Origin: a virus
Lineage: Duplodnaviria > Heunggongvirae > Uroviricota > Caudoviricetes
Length of the DNA: 35,511 bases
Virus record (IMG/VR): IMGVR_UViG_3300012942_000033
Span: 1-35,511 of that record
Reading direction: 5' to 3' (one strand)
Position numbers and translations under genes: made by a program. Shown here in pieces: positions 8 to 7,120 of the stretch (positions within the stretch are counted from its first letter, which is position 1; each line of letters starts with the position of its first letter). Under the pieces are notes generated by a model that was not told the DNA's origin, made no database searches, and saw nothing but the letters and a program-made list of their open reading frames with translations.

Positions 8-2491
8 ATGACCTATCCACTACAGTCGCCAGGTACTTCTGTTACCGTCACCGACGAATCCAATTACGCAACGGCTGGTGAAGGCACTGTTCCGCTGATC
101 ATCATCGGCACTCATGAATACAAGGCGCTTCCTTCAGGAACTGGCGTCGCTGAGGGCACCCTGCCTGAGAACGCAAACAAGCTCTACCCAATCACGAGCC
201 AGCGCGAACTCCTCCAGACGTTCGGTAATCCAATCTTCTACACCAAGAACGGCACATCCGTTCATGGCTATGAACTCAATGAGTTTGGTCTTCATGCCGC
301 CTACCAGTATCTTGGTGTCGCGAACCGCGCATTTGTGATTCGCGCTGCGATCGATTACGCCCAGCTTATGCCAACCGCAACAGCACCACGTGGTGAGGCT
401 GCGCAAGGAACTTGCTGGCTTGACACTCTGAACAACACCTGGGGCATTTACGAATGGACCGGTTCACAGTGGGATGATCGCGACCTCTACGTTTTGAATG
501 AACTATCGGATCTAGACCAAAACGCCGCTGAACAGGTTACTGGCCAGAAGATTCCTGATGCCGGCACTGGTGAGGATAATGACCTTGCTATGGTCGTCTT
601 CTACAGCAAGAAGAGCCTATACCAGAAGCTAGGTGGTGCTTGGTATCTAGTTGGTAGTGATGATTGGAAGACTACCAAGGCACAGGGTGGTGCGACACCA
701 AACCTTATCTACAACACCTTTGCTCCAGAGACGAGCACGGTTGGTGACATTCTTGTGAAGATCACCCCTGCTAAATTGTTTGGTGGTATCTCGAGTGCTG
801 CTACCTGGATTTTGAAGACGTTCAATGTCACTACTGGTGCTTGGGATCAGAATCTGGTTCCACTCTACCCTAGCTTCTATGAGAATAGCCTGGCAAAGAC
901 CAGTGGTTCTGTGTTTGTTTCGGTTGGTGCGGATGATGCTCATCCGGCTACTGGAACGATCTCCACAGATTCAGACGGTAACGCGATCTACACGGTAACC
1001 GATCCTGGCACGGCTGTTTTTGAATTCCACACCTACACCAGCTCTTGGGGTGCGTTGGGTGAGGAAGCTGGCCCTGATGAACCAACGAGTGATCCTGATG
1101 AGGGCACTCTCTGGTACAATAACCAGAATATCGTGGTAAACATCAAGGTTTGCGCTCCTGTCAATGGCGTCTCCTCTTGGGTGCCTTACAGCACTCAATA
1201 TCCGGCAACGGATTCCAACGGCGTTCTGCTCCAGGGTAGCGCTCCATCGGTACAATCGGGCGGTGATCCACTAGTCGATAATGACCTCTGGATTGACACC
1301 TCGGATATGGAGAACTTCCCCAAGATGTATCGCCGTACTGGTGGTGCTTGGAAGGCCATTGATGTTGCGAATAACGTCGACCCAGTCAACGGCATCGCGT
1401 TTGGTGAAGAAGCTACGACTTCCGCGTTGGCTTTCCCCACTGGCATGAAACTGTTTGACCTCTCGGCATCGACCAATGATGTCAAGCAATTCACGGGTGG
1501 TCAGTGGACAAATGTCTCGGGTTATGACCTAGATGGTGTTCCATTCTTTGGTCGTAAGGCCCAACGCCAGATGATCGTGAGGGCACTCGCGGCAACAATC
1601 TCTGATAACCAGGATATTCGAGCGGAAACCGTTTACTTCAACCTGCTTGCGGCTCCTGGCTACATTGAGCTCATTGATGAGATGGTCACGCTGAATACTG
1701 ACATGAAGCAGGTTGCTTTCATCGTTGGTGATACGCCGATCCGTTTGGATTCAAGTGGTGCTTCGATTACTCAGTTTGCCAATAATGCCGCTAACGGTAA
1801 TACCGAAGATGGTGTGAGCACTTTCGACTCATATGTTGGTATGTATTACCCTTGGGGTCTAAGCACTAACGTCGATGGTAATGAGGTTATGGTGCCACCA
1901 AGCACTATCGCGCTTCGCACCCTCGCCTACAGTGACTCGGTGAGCTATCCTTGGTTGGCTCCTGCTGGTTTCAACCGCGGTCTTGTTACCAATGCATCGA
2001 GTGTTGGTTACCTCGATAGTGCGGGTGAGTTCAAGGCAGCTATGTTGAATGAGGGTCAGAGAGACATCCTCTACCAGAACAACATCAACCCAATCGCGTA
2101 TATTCCAAACCGCGGTCTGGTTGTATATGGTCAGAAGACTCGCCAGGCAGAGGCAACTTCGCTTGATCGTATCAACGTAGCGCGTCTAATCAATTACCTG
2201 CGTTACAATCTCGATAACATCAGCAAGCCATTCCTCTTCGAGCCAAACGACCTCCACACGCGAGATTCAGCGAAGACGACATTTGAGCGTTTCCTGGCTG
2301 ATCTAGTTGGTCTGCGCGGCCTCTACGACTTTGTTGTGGTTTGTGACGAATCCAACAATACGCCAGAGCGTATTGACCGACACGAGCTTTGGGTGGATAT
2401 TGCTATCCAGCCAGTACAGGCCATCGAGTTCATCTACATTCCAGTTCGCATCGTGGCAACTGGAGATGATCTCGGAACCCTATTCACCTAA
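8..2491 (+). CDS. gp18: Contractile tail sheath protein (T4 gp18-like), 827 aa
   Basis: N-terminal 'LQSPGTSVTVTDES' and 'ITSQRELLQTFGNP'; C-terminal sheath motifs 'PWLAPAGFNRG', 'LYQNNINPI', 'YGQKT', 'LDRINVARL', 'FLFEPND', 'VCDESNNTPERID', 'EFIYIP'. Confidence 0.95.
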   Translation: MTYPLQSPGTSVTVTDESNYATAGEGTVPLIIIGTHEYKALPSGTGVAEGTLPENANKLYPITSQRELLQTFGNPIFYTKNGTSVHGYELNEFGLHAAYQYLGVANRAFVIRAAIDYAQLMPTATAPRGEAAQGTCWLDTLNNTWGIYEWTGSQWDDRDLYVLNELSDLDQNAAEQVTGQKIPDAGTGEDNDLAMVVFYSKKSLYQKLGGAWYLVGSDDWKTTKAQGGATPNLIYNTFAPETSTVGDILVKITPAKLFGGISSAATWILKTFNVTTGAWDQNLVPLYPSFYENSLAKTSGSVFVSVGADDAHPATGTISTDSDGNAIYTVTDPGTAVFEFHTYTSSWGALGEEAGPDEPTSDPDEGTLWYNNQNIVVNIKVCAPVNGVSSWVPYSTQYPATDSNGVLLQGSAPSVQSGGDPLVDNDLWIDTSDMENFPKMYRRTGGAWKAIDVANNVDPVNGIAFGEEATTSALAFPTGMKLFDLSASTNDVKQFTGGQWTNVSGYDLDGVPFFGRKAQRQMIVRALAATISDNQDIRAETVYFNLLAAPGYIELIDEMVTLNTDMKQVAFIVGDTPIRLDSSGASITQFANNAANGNTEDGVSTFDSYVGMYYPWGLSTNVDGNEVMVPPSTIALRTLAYSDSVSYPWLAPAGFNRGLVTNASSVGYLDSAGEFKAAMLNEGQRDILYQNNINPIAYIPNRGLVVYGQKTRQAEATSLDRINVARLINYLRYNLDNISKPFLFEPNDLHTRDSAKTTFERFLADLVGLRGLYDFVVVCDESNNTPERIDRHELWVDIAIQPVQAIEFIYIPVRIVATGDDLGTLFT

Positions 2492-2497
2492 GAAGAA

Positions 2498-2529
2498 CAA
2501 GAGCGGATGGTTCCTACCATCCGCTCTTG
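2498..2529 (+). terminator. Perfect 14-bp hairpin after the sheath stop codon (probable terminator or processing site)
   Basis: CAAGAGCGGATGGT-tcct-ACCATCCGCTCTTG; no immediate U-tract (TTTT about 8 nt downstream). Confidence 0.6.
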
Positions 2530-2543
2530 CCATGACTTTTAGA

Positions 2544-2572
2544 TTGCACTTAGGGCCAGTTTGTCATAAAAC
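2544..2572 (+). promoter_or_regulatory. Candidate sigma70-like promoter for the downstream structured RNA
   Basis: TTGCAC-N17-TAAAAC, enclosed by GCCATGA(2529-35)/TCATGGC(2576-82) inverted repeat; imperfect match. Confidence 0.3.
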
Positions 2573-2577
2573 AGATC

Positions 2578-2940
2578 ATGGCATCGAGGGCTAACGCCCT
2601 GAACCCATAATGTGACCATTGGTGACTGGGCTGTGTGCTGACACATAAAGGTATCTCCGTAGTGGCGTGCGGGATTGGTCATAGCTCTGGAATGAACCAG
2701 ATAAGGTGTGGCGAGGTCCTTTTAGGGTCTCCAGGAGTTTGAAGGTTTCGGCTTTCTAAGGTAACAGGTGCGGGAAGAACTCCCCCGCGTCCCCTTCTAG
2801 GCGTTCGTGTAGGGGGTTAAGTAGATCCGCTGATTCGGCCAGGCTCAGAAGGATCGAATATGGTGAGGAGGCAGGCCCCGGTCATAAGTCCTCAGTGATA
2901 TGGCATCACCCTGTTACCCGATCGGTGAGGTGTTTTCTTT
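2578..2940 (+). ncRNA. Candidate large structured ncRNA (~360 nt), family unknown
   Basis: No credible ORF; more than 10 stems incl. UUCG and UAAC tetraloops; long-range helices 2760-68/2910-18 (9 bp perfect) and 2611-18/2676-83; G-U pairs indicate + strand; ends in T-rich tract. Confidence 0.6.
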
Positions 2941-2966
2941 GACATCCTGTCATCCTGTGTTAAATA
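2939..2966 (+). promoter_or_regulatory. Candidate promoter TTGACA-N16-TAAATA
   Basis: Perfect -35 at 2939-44; TAAATA (2961-66) also matches the late motif seen elsewhere in this window. Confidence 0.5.
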
Positions 2967-2969
2967 GGC

Positions 2970-3272
2970 ATGATGGATAAGGAAATGACTGTGGTAGAAG
3001 CGTTCTACCGTGATGTCTCGGATCTGCTGGGCATCGAAAGCAATTACGAATACAACCCCTACACTCGTGGGGGAACGTATCGAACCCGCTGGAATAACCG
3101 CACGCCTGGCAACGGTCGGTTCGAGGGGTTCGGTTTGATTCGGTTCTTTGGCCCGAATGTGATCCACGTTGTGCTTCACAAACCCGTTCAGATAAACCGT
3201 GTCTACGATAGCACGGAAGCGGTTCTCGATGCGCTGCGAAAAGCAGTTGACACAGAGAACCAGGCGTCTTAA
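2970..3272 (+). CDS. Hypothetical protein, 100 aa (start could be 2973 or 2985)
   Basis: ORF between promoter and Ro60 leader; Arg/Trp/Gly-rich core RTRWNNRTPGNGRFEGFGLIRFFG; no family recognised. Confidence 0.7.
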   Translation: MMDKEMTVVEAFYRDVSDLLGIESNYEYNPYTRGGTYRTRWNNRTPGNGRFEGFGLIRFFGPNVIHVVLHKPVQINRVYDSTEAVLDALRKAVDTENQAS

Positions 3273-3279
3273 TAGGCGC

Positions 3280-3452
3280 TGATCATATCGACCCGTCTGT
3301 TGGTATGATCAAGAGATAACCGTTCATATCTCGAATTCAAAGCTGTGGTTTTGAATCTGAGTGGCCGTCTCCACTCCTTACGATCGATGTCTTCCGGCCC
3401 TAATGTCAGGGGCCAACCTTGCTCATGGGTTTCATGAGCCGAATAAGGAGTG
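3280..3452 (+). promoter_or_regulatory. Structured 5' leader of Ro60: six tandem hairpins plus anti-SD element
   Basis: Hairpins at 3280-3311, 3313-32, 3335-56, 3359-76, 3396-3414, 3421-39; CACTCCTTA (3372-80) is the exact reverse complement of TAAGGAGTG (3444-52, the SD). Confidence 0.75.
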
Positions 3453-3458
3453 ACTACT

Positions 3459-5144
3459 ATGACCAACTACACCAAGACTCTGGCTGGCGTGAATACCCAC
3501 GTGACCACGACCCCTCAGTCGAAGCCCATTGTGGGCCGAGAGGCTGAGATGGCCAAGAATAACGCGGGTGGATTCACCTTCACTATCACGCCCTGGGATC
3601 AGCTGGATCGGTTCCTGATCCTTGGCACCGAGGGTGGAACCTATTACCAGAAGGAGCAGGAGCTTACCGTGCAGAACGCACAGAATGTTCTGCGTCTCAT
3701 CGGGCAGGATGGCGTTCGGGTTGTGAATCGTGTCGTTGAGATCAGCGATGCTGGTCGTGCGGCCAAGAATGATCCTGCGCTCTTTGTGCTCGCAATGGCA
3801 AGTGCGGCTGATGATGAGGCAACGCGTCAGGCGGCTCTAGCAGCTCTGCCGAAGGTTGCTCGTATCGGTACCCATCTGTTCCATTTCGCGGCCTTCGTTG
3901 ATGGTATGCGTGGTTGGGGACGTGCTCTTCGTCGCGCCGTAGCGAACTGGTATCTCGAGATGCCGCTTGACCGTCTGGCCAACCAGGCGATCAAGTATCA
4001 GGCTCGTGATGGTTGGTCGCACCGCGATATGCTGCGTCTGGGCCACCCCAAGACATTTGAGGCAGAGCGTGATGCTATCCTGCGTTGGATGGTCGGTGGT
4101 ATGGATGCCGTGGCATCACAGGAGTATCACCGTGGTTCGACGATCCTTGACAATGAGGTGACTTTGGCCCGTAGCGATGCGACTGACATCCTACACTCGC
4201 AGATCCAGGCATTCGAGGCGGCTAAGAAGGCCACTTCGGCCAAGGATATCATCAAGCTGATCAAGGATGCTGATCTTCCTCGTGAGGCTATTCCAACTCA
4301 GTTCCTCAACGACGCAAAGGTCTGGGAGGCGCTGTTGGCGAATATGCCGCTCGGTGCGATGATCCGTAACCTGGGCAAGATGTCGAGCGTTGGTCTGCTG
4401 ACCTCGATGTCACAGGCGGAGAAGCTCGTTCGGGCTAAGCTGTCGGATGGAGATGTGATCCGCAAGGCACGTCTACACCCTATGGCCATCTTGTCGGCAT
4501 TCCTGACCTACGGTAATGGTCGTGGTGTCAAGGGCAGCAACACTTGGTCTCCAGTTCGCGGTGTTGTGGATGCCTTGGATCAGGCCTTCTATGGTTCGTT
4601 CAAGAACGTGACCCCCACGGGCAAGAACACTATGTTGGCTTTGGATGTTTCGGCATCCATGACCTGGGAGAACTGTGGTGGTGTGCCTGGATTGACTCCT
4701 CGGGTTGGTTCGGCAGCTATGGCTCTGATCACCGCGAATGTCGAGAGCTCCTACGAGTTCGTGGCATTCACGAGTGGTAGTGGCGGCCTGAGCGAGCTCA
4801 AGGTTTCGCCGCGCCAGCGGCTGGATGACGTGGTCAGCACGATCAACCGGCTGTCGATGGGTGGAACGGATTGCGCTCTGCCGATGGTTCATGCGCTTTC
4901 GGCTAAGCTGCCTGTTGAGTCGTTTGCTGTCTACACGGATTCAGAAACGTGGAGTGGTAGGATTCAGCCTTCGGAAGCCTTGAAGAAGTTTCGTGCTTCT
5001 ATGGGTATTCCGGCAAAGTTGGCGGTCGTTGGTATGACTTCTACTGGATTCAGTATCGCCGATCCTCAAGACGCCGGTATGATGGATTTCGTGGGATTTG
5101 ATGCCAGTGCTCCAGCAGTAATGGCTGATTTCTTTCGAGGCTGA
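3459..5144 (+). CDS. rsr: Ro60/Rsr RNA-binding protein (TROVE + vWA domains)
   Basis: TROVE motifs 'NNAGGF', 'LDRFLILGTEGGTYY', 'RIGTHLFHF', 'GWGRALRRAVANWY', 'KYQARDGWSHRDMLRLGHP'; vWA MIDAS 'LALDVSASM', 'GGTDCALP', 'VYTDSETW'; SD AAGGAG 8 nt before ATG 3459. Confidence 0.95.
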   Translation: MTNYTKTLAGVNTHVTTTPQSKPIVGREAEMAKNNAGGFTFTITPWDQLDRFLILGTEGGTYYQKEQELTVQNAQNVLRLIGQDGVRVVNRVVEISDAGRAAKNDPALFVLAMASAADDEATRQAALAALPKVARIGTHLFHFAAFVDGMRGWGRALRRAVANWYLEMPLDRLANQAIKYQARDGWSHRDMLRLGHPKTFEAERDAILRWMVGGMDAVASQEYHRGSTILDNEVTLARSDATDILHSQIQAFEAAKKATSAKDIIKLIKDADLPREAIPTQFLNDAKVWEALLANMPLGAMIRNLGKMSSVGLLTSMSQAEKLVRAKLSDGDVIRKARLHPMAILSAFLTYGNGRGVKGSNTWSPVRGVVDALDQAFYGSFKNVTPTGKNTMLALDVSASMTWENCGGVPGLTPRVGSAAMALITANVESSYEFVAFTSGSGGLSELKVSPRQRLDDVVSTINRLSMGGTDCALPMVHALSAKLPVESFAVYTDSETWSGRIQPSEALKKFRASMGIPAKLAVVGMTSTGFSIADPQDAGMMDFVGFDASAPAVMADFFRG

Positions 5145-5146
5145 AC

Positions 5147-5180
5147 GGATAAGGGAGGCTCCTAAAAGCCTCCCTTATTC
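5147..5180. terminator. Hairpin between convergent rsr and HNH genes (probable bidirectional terminator)
   Basis: GGATAAGGGAGGCT-cctaaa-AGCCTCCCTTATTC, 14 bp with one G-U; overlaps the HNH stop codon. Confidence 0.7.
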
Positions 5181-5872
5181 ATATCTTCATAGAGTTGCAG
5201 GATCGTCTTCCATGAAGACGATCCTTTCTTTATGTTGTCAGTGCTTGATAAGACTTGCAGATTAGACCAATGACCTATAACTTCAGGTTGGATGTCATGA
5301 TCATAACCATCAGCTTTTGAGAAGATGTGATCTAGGTGGTAATCCGAATGTAGGATTTTAAGCCCCTGTGGATCAATAATGTGCTTCATAGCCTTCCAAC
5401 TACGTTCGGTGTATTTCTGCACTTCTCTAACGTACCGTTGGTAATCTGCGAGACTCTCTGGATCATGATAGTGACCATTCATACAGCCAGTGATTCTGGC
5501 CTTTTGACCAGCTAGTTCATATGAACTCAATCCAGTTGTTGGATCTTTAATAGATCTGGTTGATGCTGTCTTCCTAGCCGTTCTTTGGTAGCAATCCAGA
5601 CCATCTTTGATATCGGCTCTTTTGGTTTGCCTCATCTTCTTAGCTGATTTCAGGTAGCCATCTCCCCCTCTGGATTTAGCATTCTTCTGACTAGTGCGTT
5701 GAAAGATCGTCAGACCATCATCACCAATTTGGTTCATAGTAGCTATTCGAGACCTTTGACGGCGGCCAATAACTGCTGGACAGGATGATTGATGCTTTGA
5801 GCAACACCAGAGACCTGATTTGAATTGGTGAATAGCTGTTTGGTTACAACCGTAATCACAGGTAGTCATCAT
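5162..5872 (-). CDS. Free-standing HNH (His-Me finger) homing-endonuclease-like protein, 236 aa
   Basis: C-terminal 'YHLDHIFSK...HWSNLQVLSSTDNIKKG'; N-terminal Cys cluster CDYGC/CCSKHQSSCP; helical internal repeats; antisense to neighbours. Confidence 0.8.
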   Translation of the reverse strand: MMTTCDYGCNQTAIHQFKSGLWCCSKHQSSCPAVIGRRQRSRIATMNQIGDDGLTIFQRTSQKNAKSRGGDGYLKSAKKMRQTKRADIKDGLDCYQRTARKTASTRSIKDPTTGLSSYELAGQKARITGCMNGHYHDPESLADYQRYVREVQKYTERSWKAMKHIIDPQGLKILHSDYHLDHIFSKADGYDHDIQPEVIGHWSNLQVLSSTDNIKKGSSSWKTILQLYEDMNKGGF

Positions 5873-5900
5873 TCTAATCCTTTAATTTGTCACCTATATA

Positions 5901-5930
5901 TTGAAGCCTCCTTGTTGATTTTGCTATAAG
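5901..5930 (+). promoter_or_regulatory. Candidate promoter TTGAAG-N18-TATAAG
   Basis: Upstream of SD GGAGG (5937-41) and ATG 5948; same 18-nt spacing as five other sites in the window. Confidence 0.45.
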
Positions 5931-5947
5931 TTTTCAGGAGGTAACCC

Positions 5948-6364
5948 ATGTCTGAATTGTATATTGTGCCAAGAGGCAATGAAGTTCTCAAGTTCATGTC
6001 AACTATGGATAAGAACCTGGAAGACTACCACCGCTGGAAAGAATTATTTCAGAGCCTACAGGATGAAATTAAAACACGACATCCTTTTGAGATTAGCGGT
6101 GATGCTAAAGTAGCCAAGATTGTTTGGACCTCGTTCAACAAAAAGGATACCCAAGTGATTCTGAATGTTGAGCATAAGGGTTCAACAAGTTCGAGGTATT
6201 GGTTTGAGGTGATTGATCCTCTTTCATTTAGCCCTGAAAGGTTACCAGATTCCTATAGCAATGATGAAGTATATAATACTATCAATGCTTGGGGTTACGA
6301 TAAGAAGGTATTCAATACACAGGTAGCTAAAGACACTGAGAAACTTCTCCAAAAGTATCTATAA
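5948..6364 (+). CDS. Hypothetical protein, 138 aa
   Basis: Strong SD GGAGG then ATG; no family recognised. Confidence 0.8.
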   Translation: MSELYIVPRGNEVLKFMSTMDKNLEDYHRWKELFQSLQDEIKTRHPFEISGDAKVAKIVWTSFNKKDTQVILNVEHKGSTSSRYWFEVIDPLSFSPERLPDSYSNDEVYNTINAWGYDKKVFNTQVAKDTEKLLQKYL

Positions 6365-6422
6365 CCGTTCGTTACGGCTATCATGGCAGACTTCTTCCGC
6401 AACTAAGACACTCTAACTGGAT

Positions 6423-6449
6423 GTGGCGGGTTCCGAACGGGCCCGCCAC
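6423..6449 (+). terminator. GC-rich 11-bp hairpin upstream of the tail tube gene
   Basis: GTGGCGGGTTC-cgaac-GGGCCCGCCAC; weak T-tail, so function uncertain. Confidence 0.4.
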
Positions 6450-6493
6450 TTCCATGACTGGCCAACGAATTAACTGTGCGGTTTTGACATCCA

Positions 6494-6501
6494 GATAAAT
6501 A
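6494..6501 (+). promoter_or_regulatory. T4-like late promoter (GATAAATA)
   Basis: TAAATA core 35 nt before the tube ATG; similar to T4 TATAAATA; recurs before other structural genes. Confidence 0.65.
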
Positions 6502-6535
6502 ACTGAACAACAGTTCAATCTGGAGGATCGAACCC

Positions 6536-7120
6536 ATGGTCGAAACACTCTCGAAGTTCGGCGTACCACTTGGCGGTGGCCAAGGTCGCGGTGGCCTACT
6601 TCAGCTCAAATACAAGTATCGCTACCGCGTTCGTGTGGTGAATTTCGGCCCGATCTCAGGTGGTCTGGATTTCACTCAGCAGGTTCAGACAGCGACCAAG
6701 CCAAAGATCTCACATGAACCAGTCAAGGTTGATAGCTATAACAGCGTCGCCTACTATGCTGGTAAGCATGAGTGGGACACTGTCACTATCACGCTTAAGG
6801 ATGATCTGACCAACAATGTCAGTAAGCTCGTTGGTCACCAGCTACAGAAGCAGCTCAACCACTTCGAACAGACGGCCTTTGCGGCTGGTATCAACTACAA
6901 GTTCGTAACCATTATCGAAACGATGGATGGTGGTAACGATACTGTGATTGATACCTGGACCCTCGAGGGTTGCTTCCTAAGCAATGTGGAATTCAGTGAA
7001 TTGGATTACGCTGAGAGTTCGTTCCAGACGATCTCGCTGACGGTTCGCTATGATAACGCTACCCTGGGCGATGGTCTCATGGCCACCAACCCAGAGATGA
7101 TTCCTGGCACTCGCCTATAA
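6536..7120 (+). CDS. gp19: Tail tube protein (gp19-like), 194 aa
   Basis: 'KYRYRV', 'YYAGKHEWDTVTITLKDD', 'WTLEGCF...ELDY', 'ISLTVRYDNA'; SD GGAGGA. Confidence 0.9.
   Translation: MVETLSKFGVPLGGGQGRGGLLQLKYKYRYRVRVVNFGPISGGLDFTQQVQTATKPKISHEPVKVDSYNSVAYYAGKHEWDTVTITLKDDLTNNVSKLVGHQLQKQLNHFEQTAFAAGINYKFVTIIETMDGGNDTVIDTWTLEGCFLSNVEFSELDYAESSFQTISLTVRYDNATLGDGLMATNPEMIPGTRL

Follow-up and report, generated by a model that had tools for sequence, protein, structure and literature searches.

In the sequence analyzed here (35,511 nt; hereafter, the window), the interval free of open reading frames (ORFs) downstream of the tail-sheath gene encodes, as judged from comparison with homologous sequences, a structured RNA of about 345–360 nt (positions 2581–2925, + strand) that is composed of two domains. 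The window covers the initial 35.5 kb of the 125-kb IMG/VR virus record IMGVR_UViG_3300012942_000033, which is a fragment of a jumbo phage (CheckV completeness, 27%); the contigs of relatives are 416–465 kb in length, and the DNA matching the window came from soil metagenome runs. The RNA family of which the 5′ domain is a member has apparently not been described before, and the comparative searches indicate that it is widespread in phages. An earlier reading of the sequence (the original prediction) had proposed a large noncoding RNA of an unlisted family at 2578–2940, beside a phage Ro60 gene, and had offered two identities for it: a new Ro60 partner or an independent phage RNA. A large and ornate RNA on the + strand was borne out by covariation in ten homologues. 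The specific assignment to Ro60 was not sustained, as the 5′ domain occurs in at least 55 phage loci, most of which have no Ro60 gene; an independent phage RNA is the best fit.

The comparative data carry this conclusion. The DNA of the interval is conserved in every related locus with the order sheath gene, orf100 (a 100-aa ORF) and Ro60, the identity ranging from 82% to about 69% (nhmmer E-values of 3e-94 to 1e-25). Ten copies from the related jumbo-phage loci were aligned with MAFFT and left unfitted. The alignment consists of invariant blocks alternating with variable stretches, and the variable stretches change in pairs. RNAalifold found 93 pairs in it, 51 of them with compensatory double changes. 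When the pseudoknot of the original prediction is included, the structure has 99 pairs and 97.0% of the cells are paired. Double changes occur in 55 of the 99 pairs, as compared with 35.3 ± 3.0 in shuffles (0 of 500) and with 8–14 pairs when the partners are slid by 1–3 columns. The RNA can be assigned to the + strand, because the invariant G-U pairs would read C-A on the other strand. A protein-coding reading was also considered. The ORFs overlapping the region are short and unconserved, and this reading was excluded because the homologues differ by indels of 1–2 nt and their substitutions track the pairing, not codons.

Most of the originally proposed helices were recovered in the structure based on the ten homologues. 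These are the hairpins 2587–2600, 2686–2701 and 2713–31; the helix 2611–18/2676–83 with its two inner hairpins (now 2611–19/2675–83, enclosing 2631–46 and 2658–71); the long-range helix (now 2759–66/2912–19); and the junction hairpins, now placed at 2768–90, 2791–2816, 2824–55 and 2868–93. The hairpin 2741–56 was supported in part: it can be formed by eye in every homologue, but it is out of register in the MAFFT alignment and was thus left uncounted. The local hairpin proposed at 2895–2909 gave way to a long-range helix, 2863–67/2905–09, which the homologues form instead. Because of this replacement, the 3′ junction has four arms, not the five hairpins originally drawn. The pseudoknot that had been suggested as a possibility was corroborated: its six pairs (2734–39/2778–83) are 100% paired in the ten homologues, and four of them show double changes. 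Two elements were additionally found, namely, a helix closing the 5′ domain (2581–85/2705–09) and a second pseudoknot (2604–07 with 2627–30). The coordinates of all elements are collected in Table 1.

The 5′ domain, which is the family core of about 135 nt, is, on the comparative evidence, a three-way junction locked by the second, 4-bp pseudoknot (PK1). Stem P3 encloses, in order, GGUGACUGGGA, hairpin P4, UAANGGUA and hairpin P5, and the knot is framed by the conserved unpaired stretches CUGAA...UAA, GGUGAC and UAANGGUA. The closing stem P1 is often 10–18 bp in the family and joins both RNA ends. To gather the members, the two words best conserved in the 5′ domain (TGAACCCATA...GACTGGG) were used as a query against IMG/VR, which yielded many short RNAs sharing only this domain, together with chance matches in coding DNA. 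A separate 18-mer scan gave five chance matches in coding DNA (L012, L015, L016, L018 and L023; L and G numbers designate loci and records), and the many that the first degenerate pattern gave were discarded by a covariance model. This model (R1), built on window positions 2578–2712, separates members from chance matches. A second search of IMG/VR used a relaxed pattern in which both PK1 tetramers were left free.

R1 verifies 55 IMG/VR loci after both pattern searches. In their alignment, pairing holds in 92% of the cells and double changes are seen in 35 of the 41 pairs; covariation scores 0.73, whereas shuffles give 0.18 and slid partners about 0.08. The PK1 tetramers are CCCA/UGGG in 42 loci, CCUA/UAGG in 10, CUCA/UGAG in 2 and CCAA/UUGG in 1, so that all 55 sequences are 100% paired there. 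PK1 is regarded as established, because the freed tetramers are still complementary in every R1-verified match. In one member (L125), the RNA is squeezed to 103 nt between two tRNA genes and is devoid of P1 and P2; therefore, the minimal unit consists of the pseudoknotted P3 domain and P6. In some members within tRNA arrays (e.g., L130 4860–5000, − strand), the 5′ strand of P2 can pair with the downstream GUUACCAC instead, which gives a longer terminal stem; because of this alternative pairing, P1 and P2 may be mutually exclusive in such members.

The 3′ domain is, on the same kind of evidence, a lineage-specific four-arm junction in which the originally suggested pseudoknot (PK2) joins the loop of P9 to the segment just upstream of P8. 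GGAGU/ACUCC in PK2 is exchanged for GUGAU/AUCAC in five relatives (L005, L006, L019, L013 and L025), and by eye the corresponding pairs are GAGUC/GACUC in L055 and UCGGCU/AGCCGA in L035. A covariance model of this domain (R2) was applied to 44 loci carrying the core or a Ro60 gene, and it matches only the window clade, L055 and L035. L011 has a divergent 3′ extension of similar length, which R2 does not detect. Other subfamilies have different 3′ extensions.

The core RNA occurs in three kinds of genome setting. One is the stretch between the genes for the sheath and for a gp19-like tail tube of 195 aa (L080, L094, L053, L064, L110 and L118), found in myoviruses that are distant relatives and whose sheath proteins share 42–48% identity with that of the window. 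Another is immediately upstream of the genes for family-A DNA polymerase in smaller GC-rich phages; this identity was shown with Pfam for L078, the one locus to which Pfam was applied, and L059, L048, L052 and L057 carry a similar ORF of ~820–870 aa. The last is inside tRNA arrays, where the RNA directly abuts tRNAs (L067, L079, L090, L125, L130, L106 and L133), and the genes for transfer-messenger RNA (tmRNA) or RNase P RNA are sometimes found near such members. On a different phage contig (L069), a bacterial class A RNase P RNA (3400–3695; 185 bits) lies beside tRNA-Val and about 1.2 kb upstream of the core RNA copy, all downstream of the sheath gene.

The local GC content of the phages carrying the core ranges from 33% to 68%, and the RNA occurs once per genome in the five that were searched over their full length. 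When 185,579 prokaryote species, each represented by one genome, were searched with the strict pattern, a single match was obtained (L100 3527–3665; 37 bits with R1). It lies on a contig of a Pirellulales metagenome-assembled genome, which may be a prophage or a phage contig placed in that bin. A blastn search of 50,697 GenBank phage records with the window RNA and two small members gave no match. The family also has no constant and coherent set of downstream genes of the kind expected for a riboswitch or leader: the neighbors are orf100, the tube gene, the DNA polymerase gene, tRNAs or terminators. The single copy, the varied contexts, the restriction to phages and the promoter-like pair described below together argue for an independent stable-RNA gene, not a cis-regulatory element.

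The candidate promoter noted originally, TTGCAC-17-CATAAA, agrees with the consensus and has counterparts at the same position in relatives: TTGTAT-17-TATACA, TTGAGT-17-TATAAG, TTGCGC-17-TATAAG, TTGCTT-17-TATAAG and TTGCAA-17-TATAAA. A pair of −35/−10-like elements with 16–18 nt spacing is found just upstream in most sheath-linked members. The terminator-like hairpin of the sheath transcript lies outside the RNA and marks its upstream limit; in the Rfam scan, its sole alignment was as a terminator stem of generic type. On the downstream side, the T-tract that had been pointed out is present (2932–2939), and the trailer containing it is, from its sequence, probably the 3′ end region. No canonical terminator was called after the window RNA. 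Clear hairpin and U-run terminators follow the RNA copies of L011, L087 and L064, and the L011 copy has a clear promoter as well.

No match of the window's own sequence was listed among RNA libraries, its DNA matches being soil metagenomes. The matches that RNA libraries did give are small shares stemming from relatives. Three wastewater metatranscriptome runs (X5, X6 and X10) each contain one short contig (311, 360 and 288 nt, respectively) with the RNA of a close relative. In run X6, the depth of the RNA contig is 177, as compared with 27.9 and 49.9 for the contigs of the flanking sheath-like and orf100-like genes, contig depth being a poor measure. These contigs give a weak hint of expression.

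The relation to Ro60 can be examined from the positions of the two genes. The window RNA ends about 520 nt upstream of the Ro60 gene on the same strand. An RNA upstream of a same-strand Ro60 gene (~0.5–3.5 kb) is found in four groups, i.e., the window clade, L011, L041 and G004/L076, and the arrangement was seen in L002–L006, L013, L019, L011, L041 and G004. The Ro60 proteins of L011 and L041 are, respectively, 54% and 46% identical to that of the window, and in G004/L076 the RNA is located at 117.5 kb and the TROVE gene at 120.3 kb. Two further genomes have both the RNA and TROVE, far apart. Altogether, about 5 of the 17 RNA-carrying records or groups outside the window clade encode TROVE, a share that is probably far above that expected for phages generally.

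The two genes also occur separately. A TROVE gene is absent from four near-complete RNA-carrying records (G002, 97%; G005 and G006, both 100%; and G008, 91%). In the closest outgroup (L055), the order is the sheath gene, the full two-domain RNA, orf100 and the tube gene, with no Ro60 gene between the latter two. Because orf100 is directly followed by the tube gene there, the block of Ro60, a 236-aa gene and orf138 in the window looks like an insertion. L055 and L035 have the 3′ domain without an adjacent Ro60 gene, and the RNA adjoining Ro60 in L041 consists of the core only. L008 and L009 have Ro60 genes and no R1 match within the locus. We conclude that the RNA family does not depend on Ro60, and that Ro60 may use the RNA in the window clade.

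The genes of bacterial Y RNAs lie no more than 4 kb from Ro60 and on its strand, and for these RNAs a Ro60-binding motif, GNCGAAN0-1G, has been proposed, located close to the 5′ end or within the terminal stem (PMC4201824). The Y-like RNAs of the Thermus phage phiLo were found by means of a CGAA motif that precedes Ro60, the CGAA lying in an internal bulge (PMC12135203). In the window, the conserved CGAAUA of the present RNA (2855–60) reads AUCGAAUA rather than GNCGAA, and P11 ends on its C, in a pair that covaries in L055. A 70-nt 5′ leader of the Ro60 gene consists, in order, of AGAUCGAA, a hairpin GGUCC-UAAUGUCA-GGACC, a hairpin GCUCGUG-GGUUU-CACGAGC, CCGAA and a Shine-Dalgarno site. Both hairpin stems covary, and the leader has two CGAA motifs. 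By analogy with the type of element used to find the phiLo Y-like RNAs, this leader can be viewed as a competing candidate for the Ro60 ligand; either a Y-RNA-like element or a site of Ro60 autoregulation is conceivable. Between orf100 and this leader, a run of hairpins with CCGUC-type loops (3280–3376) occurs in the window, L002 and L013 and is absent from L003, L005, L006 and L019.

Table 1 Features of the RNA and of its locus in the window
Feature	Position	Strand	Basis or remark
Terminator-like hairpin of the sheath transcript (AGAGCGGATGG...CCATCCGCTCT)	2501..2528	+	sequence reading
Promoter-like TTGCAC-17-CATAAA	2544..2572	+	consensus; 8 nt upstream of first paired base
5′ domain, family core	2581..2709	+	covariance model R1, 55 loci
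P1 closing stem	2581-85/2705-09	+	
P2 hairpin	2587-92/2595-2600	+	
J2/3 junction CUGAACCCAUAA	2599-2610	+	
PK1, core pseudoknot (CCCA 2604-2607 with UGGG 2627-2630)	2604..2630	+	
P3, 9-bp stem	2611-19/2675-83	+	
P4a	2625-26/2651-52	+	
P4 hairpin	2631-36/2641-46	+	
Segment UAAAGGUA	2646-53	+	
P5 hairpin	2658-61/2668-71	+	
P6 hairpin	2686-90/2697-2701	+	optional in the family
3′ domain, clade-specific	2713..2925	+	
P7	2713-20/2724-31	+	
PK2, pseudoknot (GGAGUU 2734-39 with P9 loop AACUCC 2778-83)	2734..2783	+	
Hairpin	2741-56	+	
P8, junction-closing long-range helix	2759-66/2912-19	+	
P9	2768-74/2784-90	+	
P10	2791-2801/2806-16	+	
P11	2824-33/2845-55	+	
Junction (C)GAAUA	2855-60	+	invariant
P12	2863-67/2905-09, with 2868-72/2888-93 and 2874-76/2881-83	+	
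3′ tail GAUCG	2920-24	+	
3′ trailer with T-tract (GUGAGGUGUUUUCUUU)	2926..2939	+	T-tract at 2932-2939
Tail-sheath gene	8-2491		Pfam Phage_sheath_1C
ORF-free interval between the sheath gene and the 100-aa ORF	2492-2969		
orf100 (100-aa ORF)	2970-3272		
Ro60 5′ leader, 70 nt	about 3378-3445		conserved in all relatives
Ro60 gene	3450-5144		TROVE 2e-41, vWA_Ro60 2e-56
Tail-tube gene	6536-7120		

Several further observations concern the locus. Ro60, the convergent 236-aa gene and orf138 occupy the region between orf100 and the tail-tube gene (~3280–6535); the 236-aa gene, which had been labeled HNH in the original prediction, has no Pfam match. A strong promoter-like sequence, TTGACA-17-TAAATA (window 2940–2975), stops 2 nt short of the orf100 start codons (ATGATGG at 2970), and sites are placed likewise just before orf100 in L002 and L055. 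Because of this spacing, the orf100 mRNA may be leaderless and translated as such. The sequence GAUCG(R) occurs in the 3′ tail of the RNA (2920–2925), at the start of the Ro60 leader (3382–3387) and before the tube start codon (6526–6531). GAUCG in the 3′ tail is invariant in all full-length copies, and this tail forms an 8-nt palindrome in the window, CCGAUCGG; the word is not enriched over the whole window. Outside the window, the phage record (G000) contains a permuted tmRNA with the tag ANDNTVEVALAA (61781–62288) and five tRNAs (116994–125191).

As to what the RNA does, the reading that we hold to be probable, by a small measure, is that of a stable trans-acting RNA (about 2578–2930, + strand) serving as a scaffold or decoy tied to the tRNA, translation or RNA-turnover machinery. 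This link is suggested by the steady company of the genes for tRNA, tmRNA, RNase P RNA and Ro60. The window RNA would be transcribed from its own sigma-70-like promoter, and elsewhere the same core would be excised from tRNA precursors, since tRNA genes directly adjoin it there. Around the knot, the invariant nucleotides that are left unpaired would present a surface recognized by some component shared among very different hosts; this component would most plausibly belong to the machinery of tRNA, translation or RNA turnover. Docked there, the RNA would serve as a scaffold or decoy during infection, and Ro60 would be a neighbor in an islet of RNA-related genes.

Several results weigh against this reading or blunt it. 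The folding energy does not favor a structured RNA: the minimum free energy of 2578–2940 is −125 kcal/mol, as compared with −126.2 ± 4.8 in dinucleotide shuffles (z = +0.26), with no better outcome on the minus strand (z = +0.61). This comparison had been named beforehand as one that could refute the RNA, and its outcome is no better than chance. The energy scores are nevertheless uninformative here and the comparative data, i.e., the other check proposed at that time, decide the matter; relying on the shuffled-sequence score alone would have led to a real RNA being wrongly discarded. Part of the sequence conservation seen in the junction motifs comes from the patterns with which the members were gathered. 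No neighboring protein gene is conserved across the family, and it is the gene neighborhood from which the whole suggested link with tRNA and RNA metabolism is drawn. The contigs of the metatranscriptomes cannot define the ends or levels of a transcript, and RNA libraries may contain DNA. Finally, a ribozyme or a small-molecule aptamer would leave an identical comparative signature.

A closer tie to Ro60 is unlikely in our view, though it deserves weighing before the other alternatives. The RNA would be a giant two-module Y-RNA-like adaptor, whose 3′ domain (e.g., the CGAAUA junction or the GAUCG tail) binds Ro60 and whose core recruits a second factor. The four groups with the RNA upstream of a same-strand Ro60 gene, the two genomes with distant copies, the overall TROVE share outside the window clade and the phage fragment being without a canonical YrlA are in line with it, as are the placement of bacterial Y RNAs (PMC4201824) and the CGAA precedent of phiLo (PMC12135203). 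The distribution argues otherwise, with the core in four near-complete genomes that lack TROVE, the 3′ domain away from Ro60 in L055 and L035, the core alone beside it in L041, and Ro60 without an RNA match in the loci of L008 and L009; moreover, the RNA seems to depart from GNCGAAN0-1G, the C of its CGAA is base-paired in P11, and the Ro60 leader with two CGAA motifs is a rival ligand. A more elaborate version, in which the core docks on a universal tRNA or translation component while the 3′ domain tethers the Ro60 ring and a host 3′-to-5′ exonuclease such as polynucleotide phosphorylase (PNPase), is quite doubtful; if true, it would be a Y-RNA-like machine encoded by a phage, with a scaffold RNA of no kinship to the known Y RNAs.

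Catalysis, e.g., processing of the RNA itself or of neighboring tRNAs from long precursors, would account for the compact pseudoknotted core with invariant unpaired nucleotides and for the members directly abutting tRNA genes, for which the theta ribozymes offer a precedent (PMC10879173). We regard a ribozyme as improbable, because many members stand alone with a promoter, a terminator and a long closing stem and so need no processing, no Rfam ribozyme family was matched, and no conserved candidate cleavage site was identified. Of about the same low probability is a decoy for host defense enzymes directed at tRNA or other RNA, or a trans-acting aptamer that binds or soaks up a small molecule. 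The tRNA arrays of some phages counter tRNA-cleaving defenses, and the restriction of the family to phages, its placement within tRNA arrays, and its invariant junctions with variable stems, as in a riboswitch aptamer, would suit this idea. Defense systems are patchy, however, while the same core persists over a local GC range that presumably reflects very different hosts; neither an expression platform nor a regulated gene downstream can be discerned, and the neighbors give no clue to a ligand. Least probable by far is a cis-acting part of an mRNA, namely, a stabilizer in the 3′ untranslated region of the sheath gene or a 5′ leader of orf100, Ro60 or the tube gene. The RNA does always follow the highly expressed sheath gene in sheath-linked phages, and L080 shows no evident terminator between the RNA and the tube gene. 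Nevertheless, between the sheath gene and the RNA lie a hairpin resembling a terminator and a promoter-like site, the copies of L011, L087 and L064 are followed by terminators, and the flanking genes (tube, DNA polymerase, tRNAs) are wholly different between lineages.

If the comparative evidence holds, this is a well-defined new RNA family with a ~135-nt core that is spread over very different phages. The stable non-tRNA RNAs of phage tRNA clusters have been unexplained since rnaC and rnaD of T4, and the sharply conserved core provides a tractable entry to them. In addition, the two-domain form beside Ro60 is a concrete candidate for a noncanonical Ro60 partner in phages without YrlA-type RNAs.

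The RNA was also compared with known RNAs, and, as originally claimed, it fits no catalogued family. At the gathering score, no Rfam 15 family matched the window, and on 2450–3000 nothing was found at E ≤ 10 inside the RNA (2578–2940). The RNA in the loci of 16 relatives, including small members, was likewise unmatched; the same run recovered RNase P class A in L069 and tRNAs in several loci. Rfam and ARAGORN gave no sign in the RNA of tmRNA, RNase P RNA, 6S, signal recognition particle (SRP) RNA, GOLLD, ROOL, OLE, raiA or group I/II introns, and ARAGORN found no tRNA, tRNA-like gene or tmRNA in the window. Words reminiscent of RNase P RNA and 16S rRNA (GAACCC, AUAAGGUA and ACUGGG...GUAAAG) are present, a resemblance that we take to be coincidental. 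Full-text literature searches for the motif sequences gave nothing relevant, and the family may be listed anonymously in an IMG/VR-wide screen for candidate structured RNAs (PMC10690425).

With Y RNAs (YrlA, RF02553; Yrn1 of D. radiodurans; Yrl1 and Yrl2 of phiLo), the new RNA shares a noncoding and modular nature, a position upstream of a same-strand Ro60 gene (within about 4 kb), an end-to-end stem in many family members, and an association with tRNA biology. It differs in being about three times larger and in lacking the T-arm and the D-arm and, apparently, GNCGAAN0-1G, and Y RNAs bind Ro60, whereas the new core occurs mostly without it, as in the four near-complete records noted above. The original statement that a canonical Y RNA helix and T-arm are absent holds: neither RF00019 (Y_RNA) nor RF02553 matched the window RNA, RF02553 found nothing near Ro60 and only a 15-bit match at a tRNA gene, hence no canonical YrlA, over the whole 125-kb record, and no GUUCRANYC-type loop, by the criterion of PMC4201824, exists in the covariation-supported structure.

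Three other groups of RNAs are similar in their setting. Theta ribozymes, which are hepatitis delta virus (HDV)-like, adjoin phage tRNAs (PMC10879173) and are, like the new core, small pseudoknotted RNAs directly beside tRNA genes; they have a nested double pseudoknot, in contrast to the three-way junction and one pseudoknot of the core, and HDV-type Rfam models did not match the latter. The T4 RNAs rnaC and rnaD (species 1 and 2 RNAs) differ from the new family, with its pseudoknotted junction, in both sequence and structure; R1 gave no match on the complete T4 and T5 records, and the annotated stretch of rnaC has a T-arm-like GGUUCGAAUCC near its 3′ end. They are nevertheless alike in being structured phage RNAs in or beside tRNA arrays, with functions unexplained, and in being probably freed by tRNA-processing enzymes. 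Finally, GOLLD (RF01998) and ROOL (RF03087), which occur in phages and prophages, are larger than the new RNA (135-nt core; about 345 nt here), which has an unrelated consensus and no Rfam match, but all of them are ornate, multi-junction and pseudoknotted phage RNAs that were found by comparative analysis and often lie near tRNA genes.

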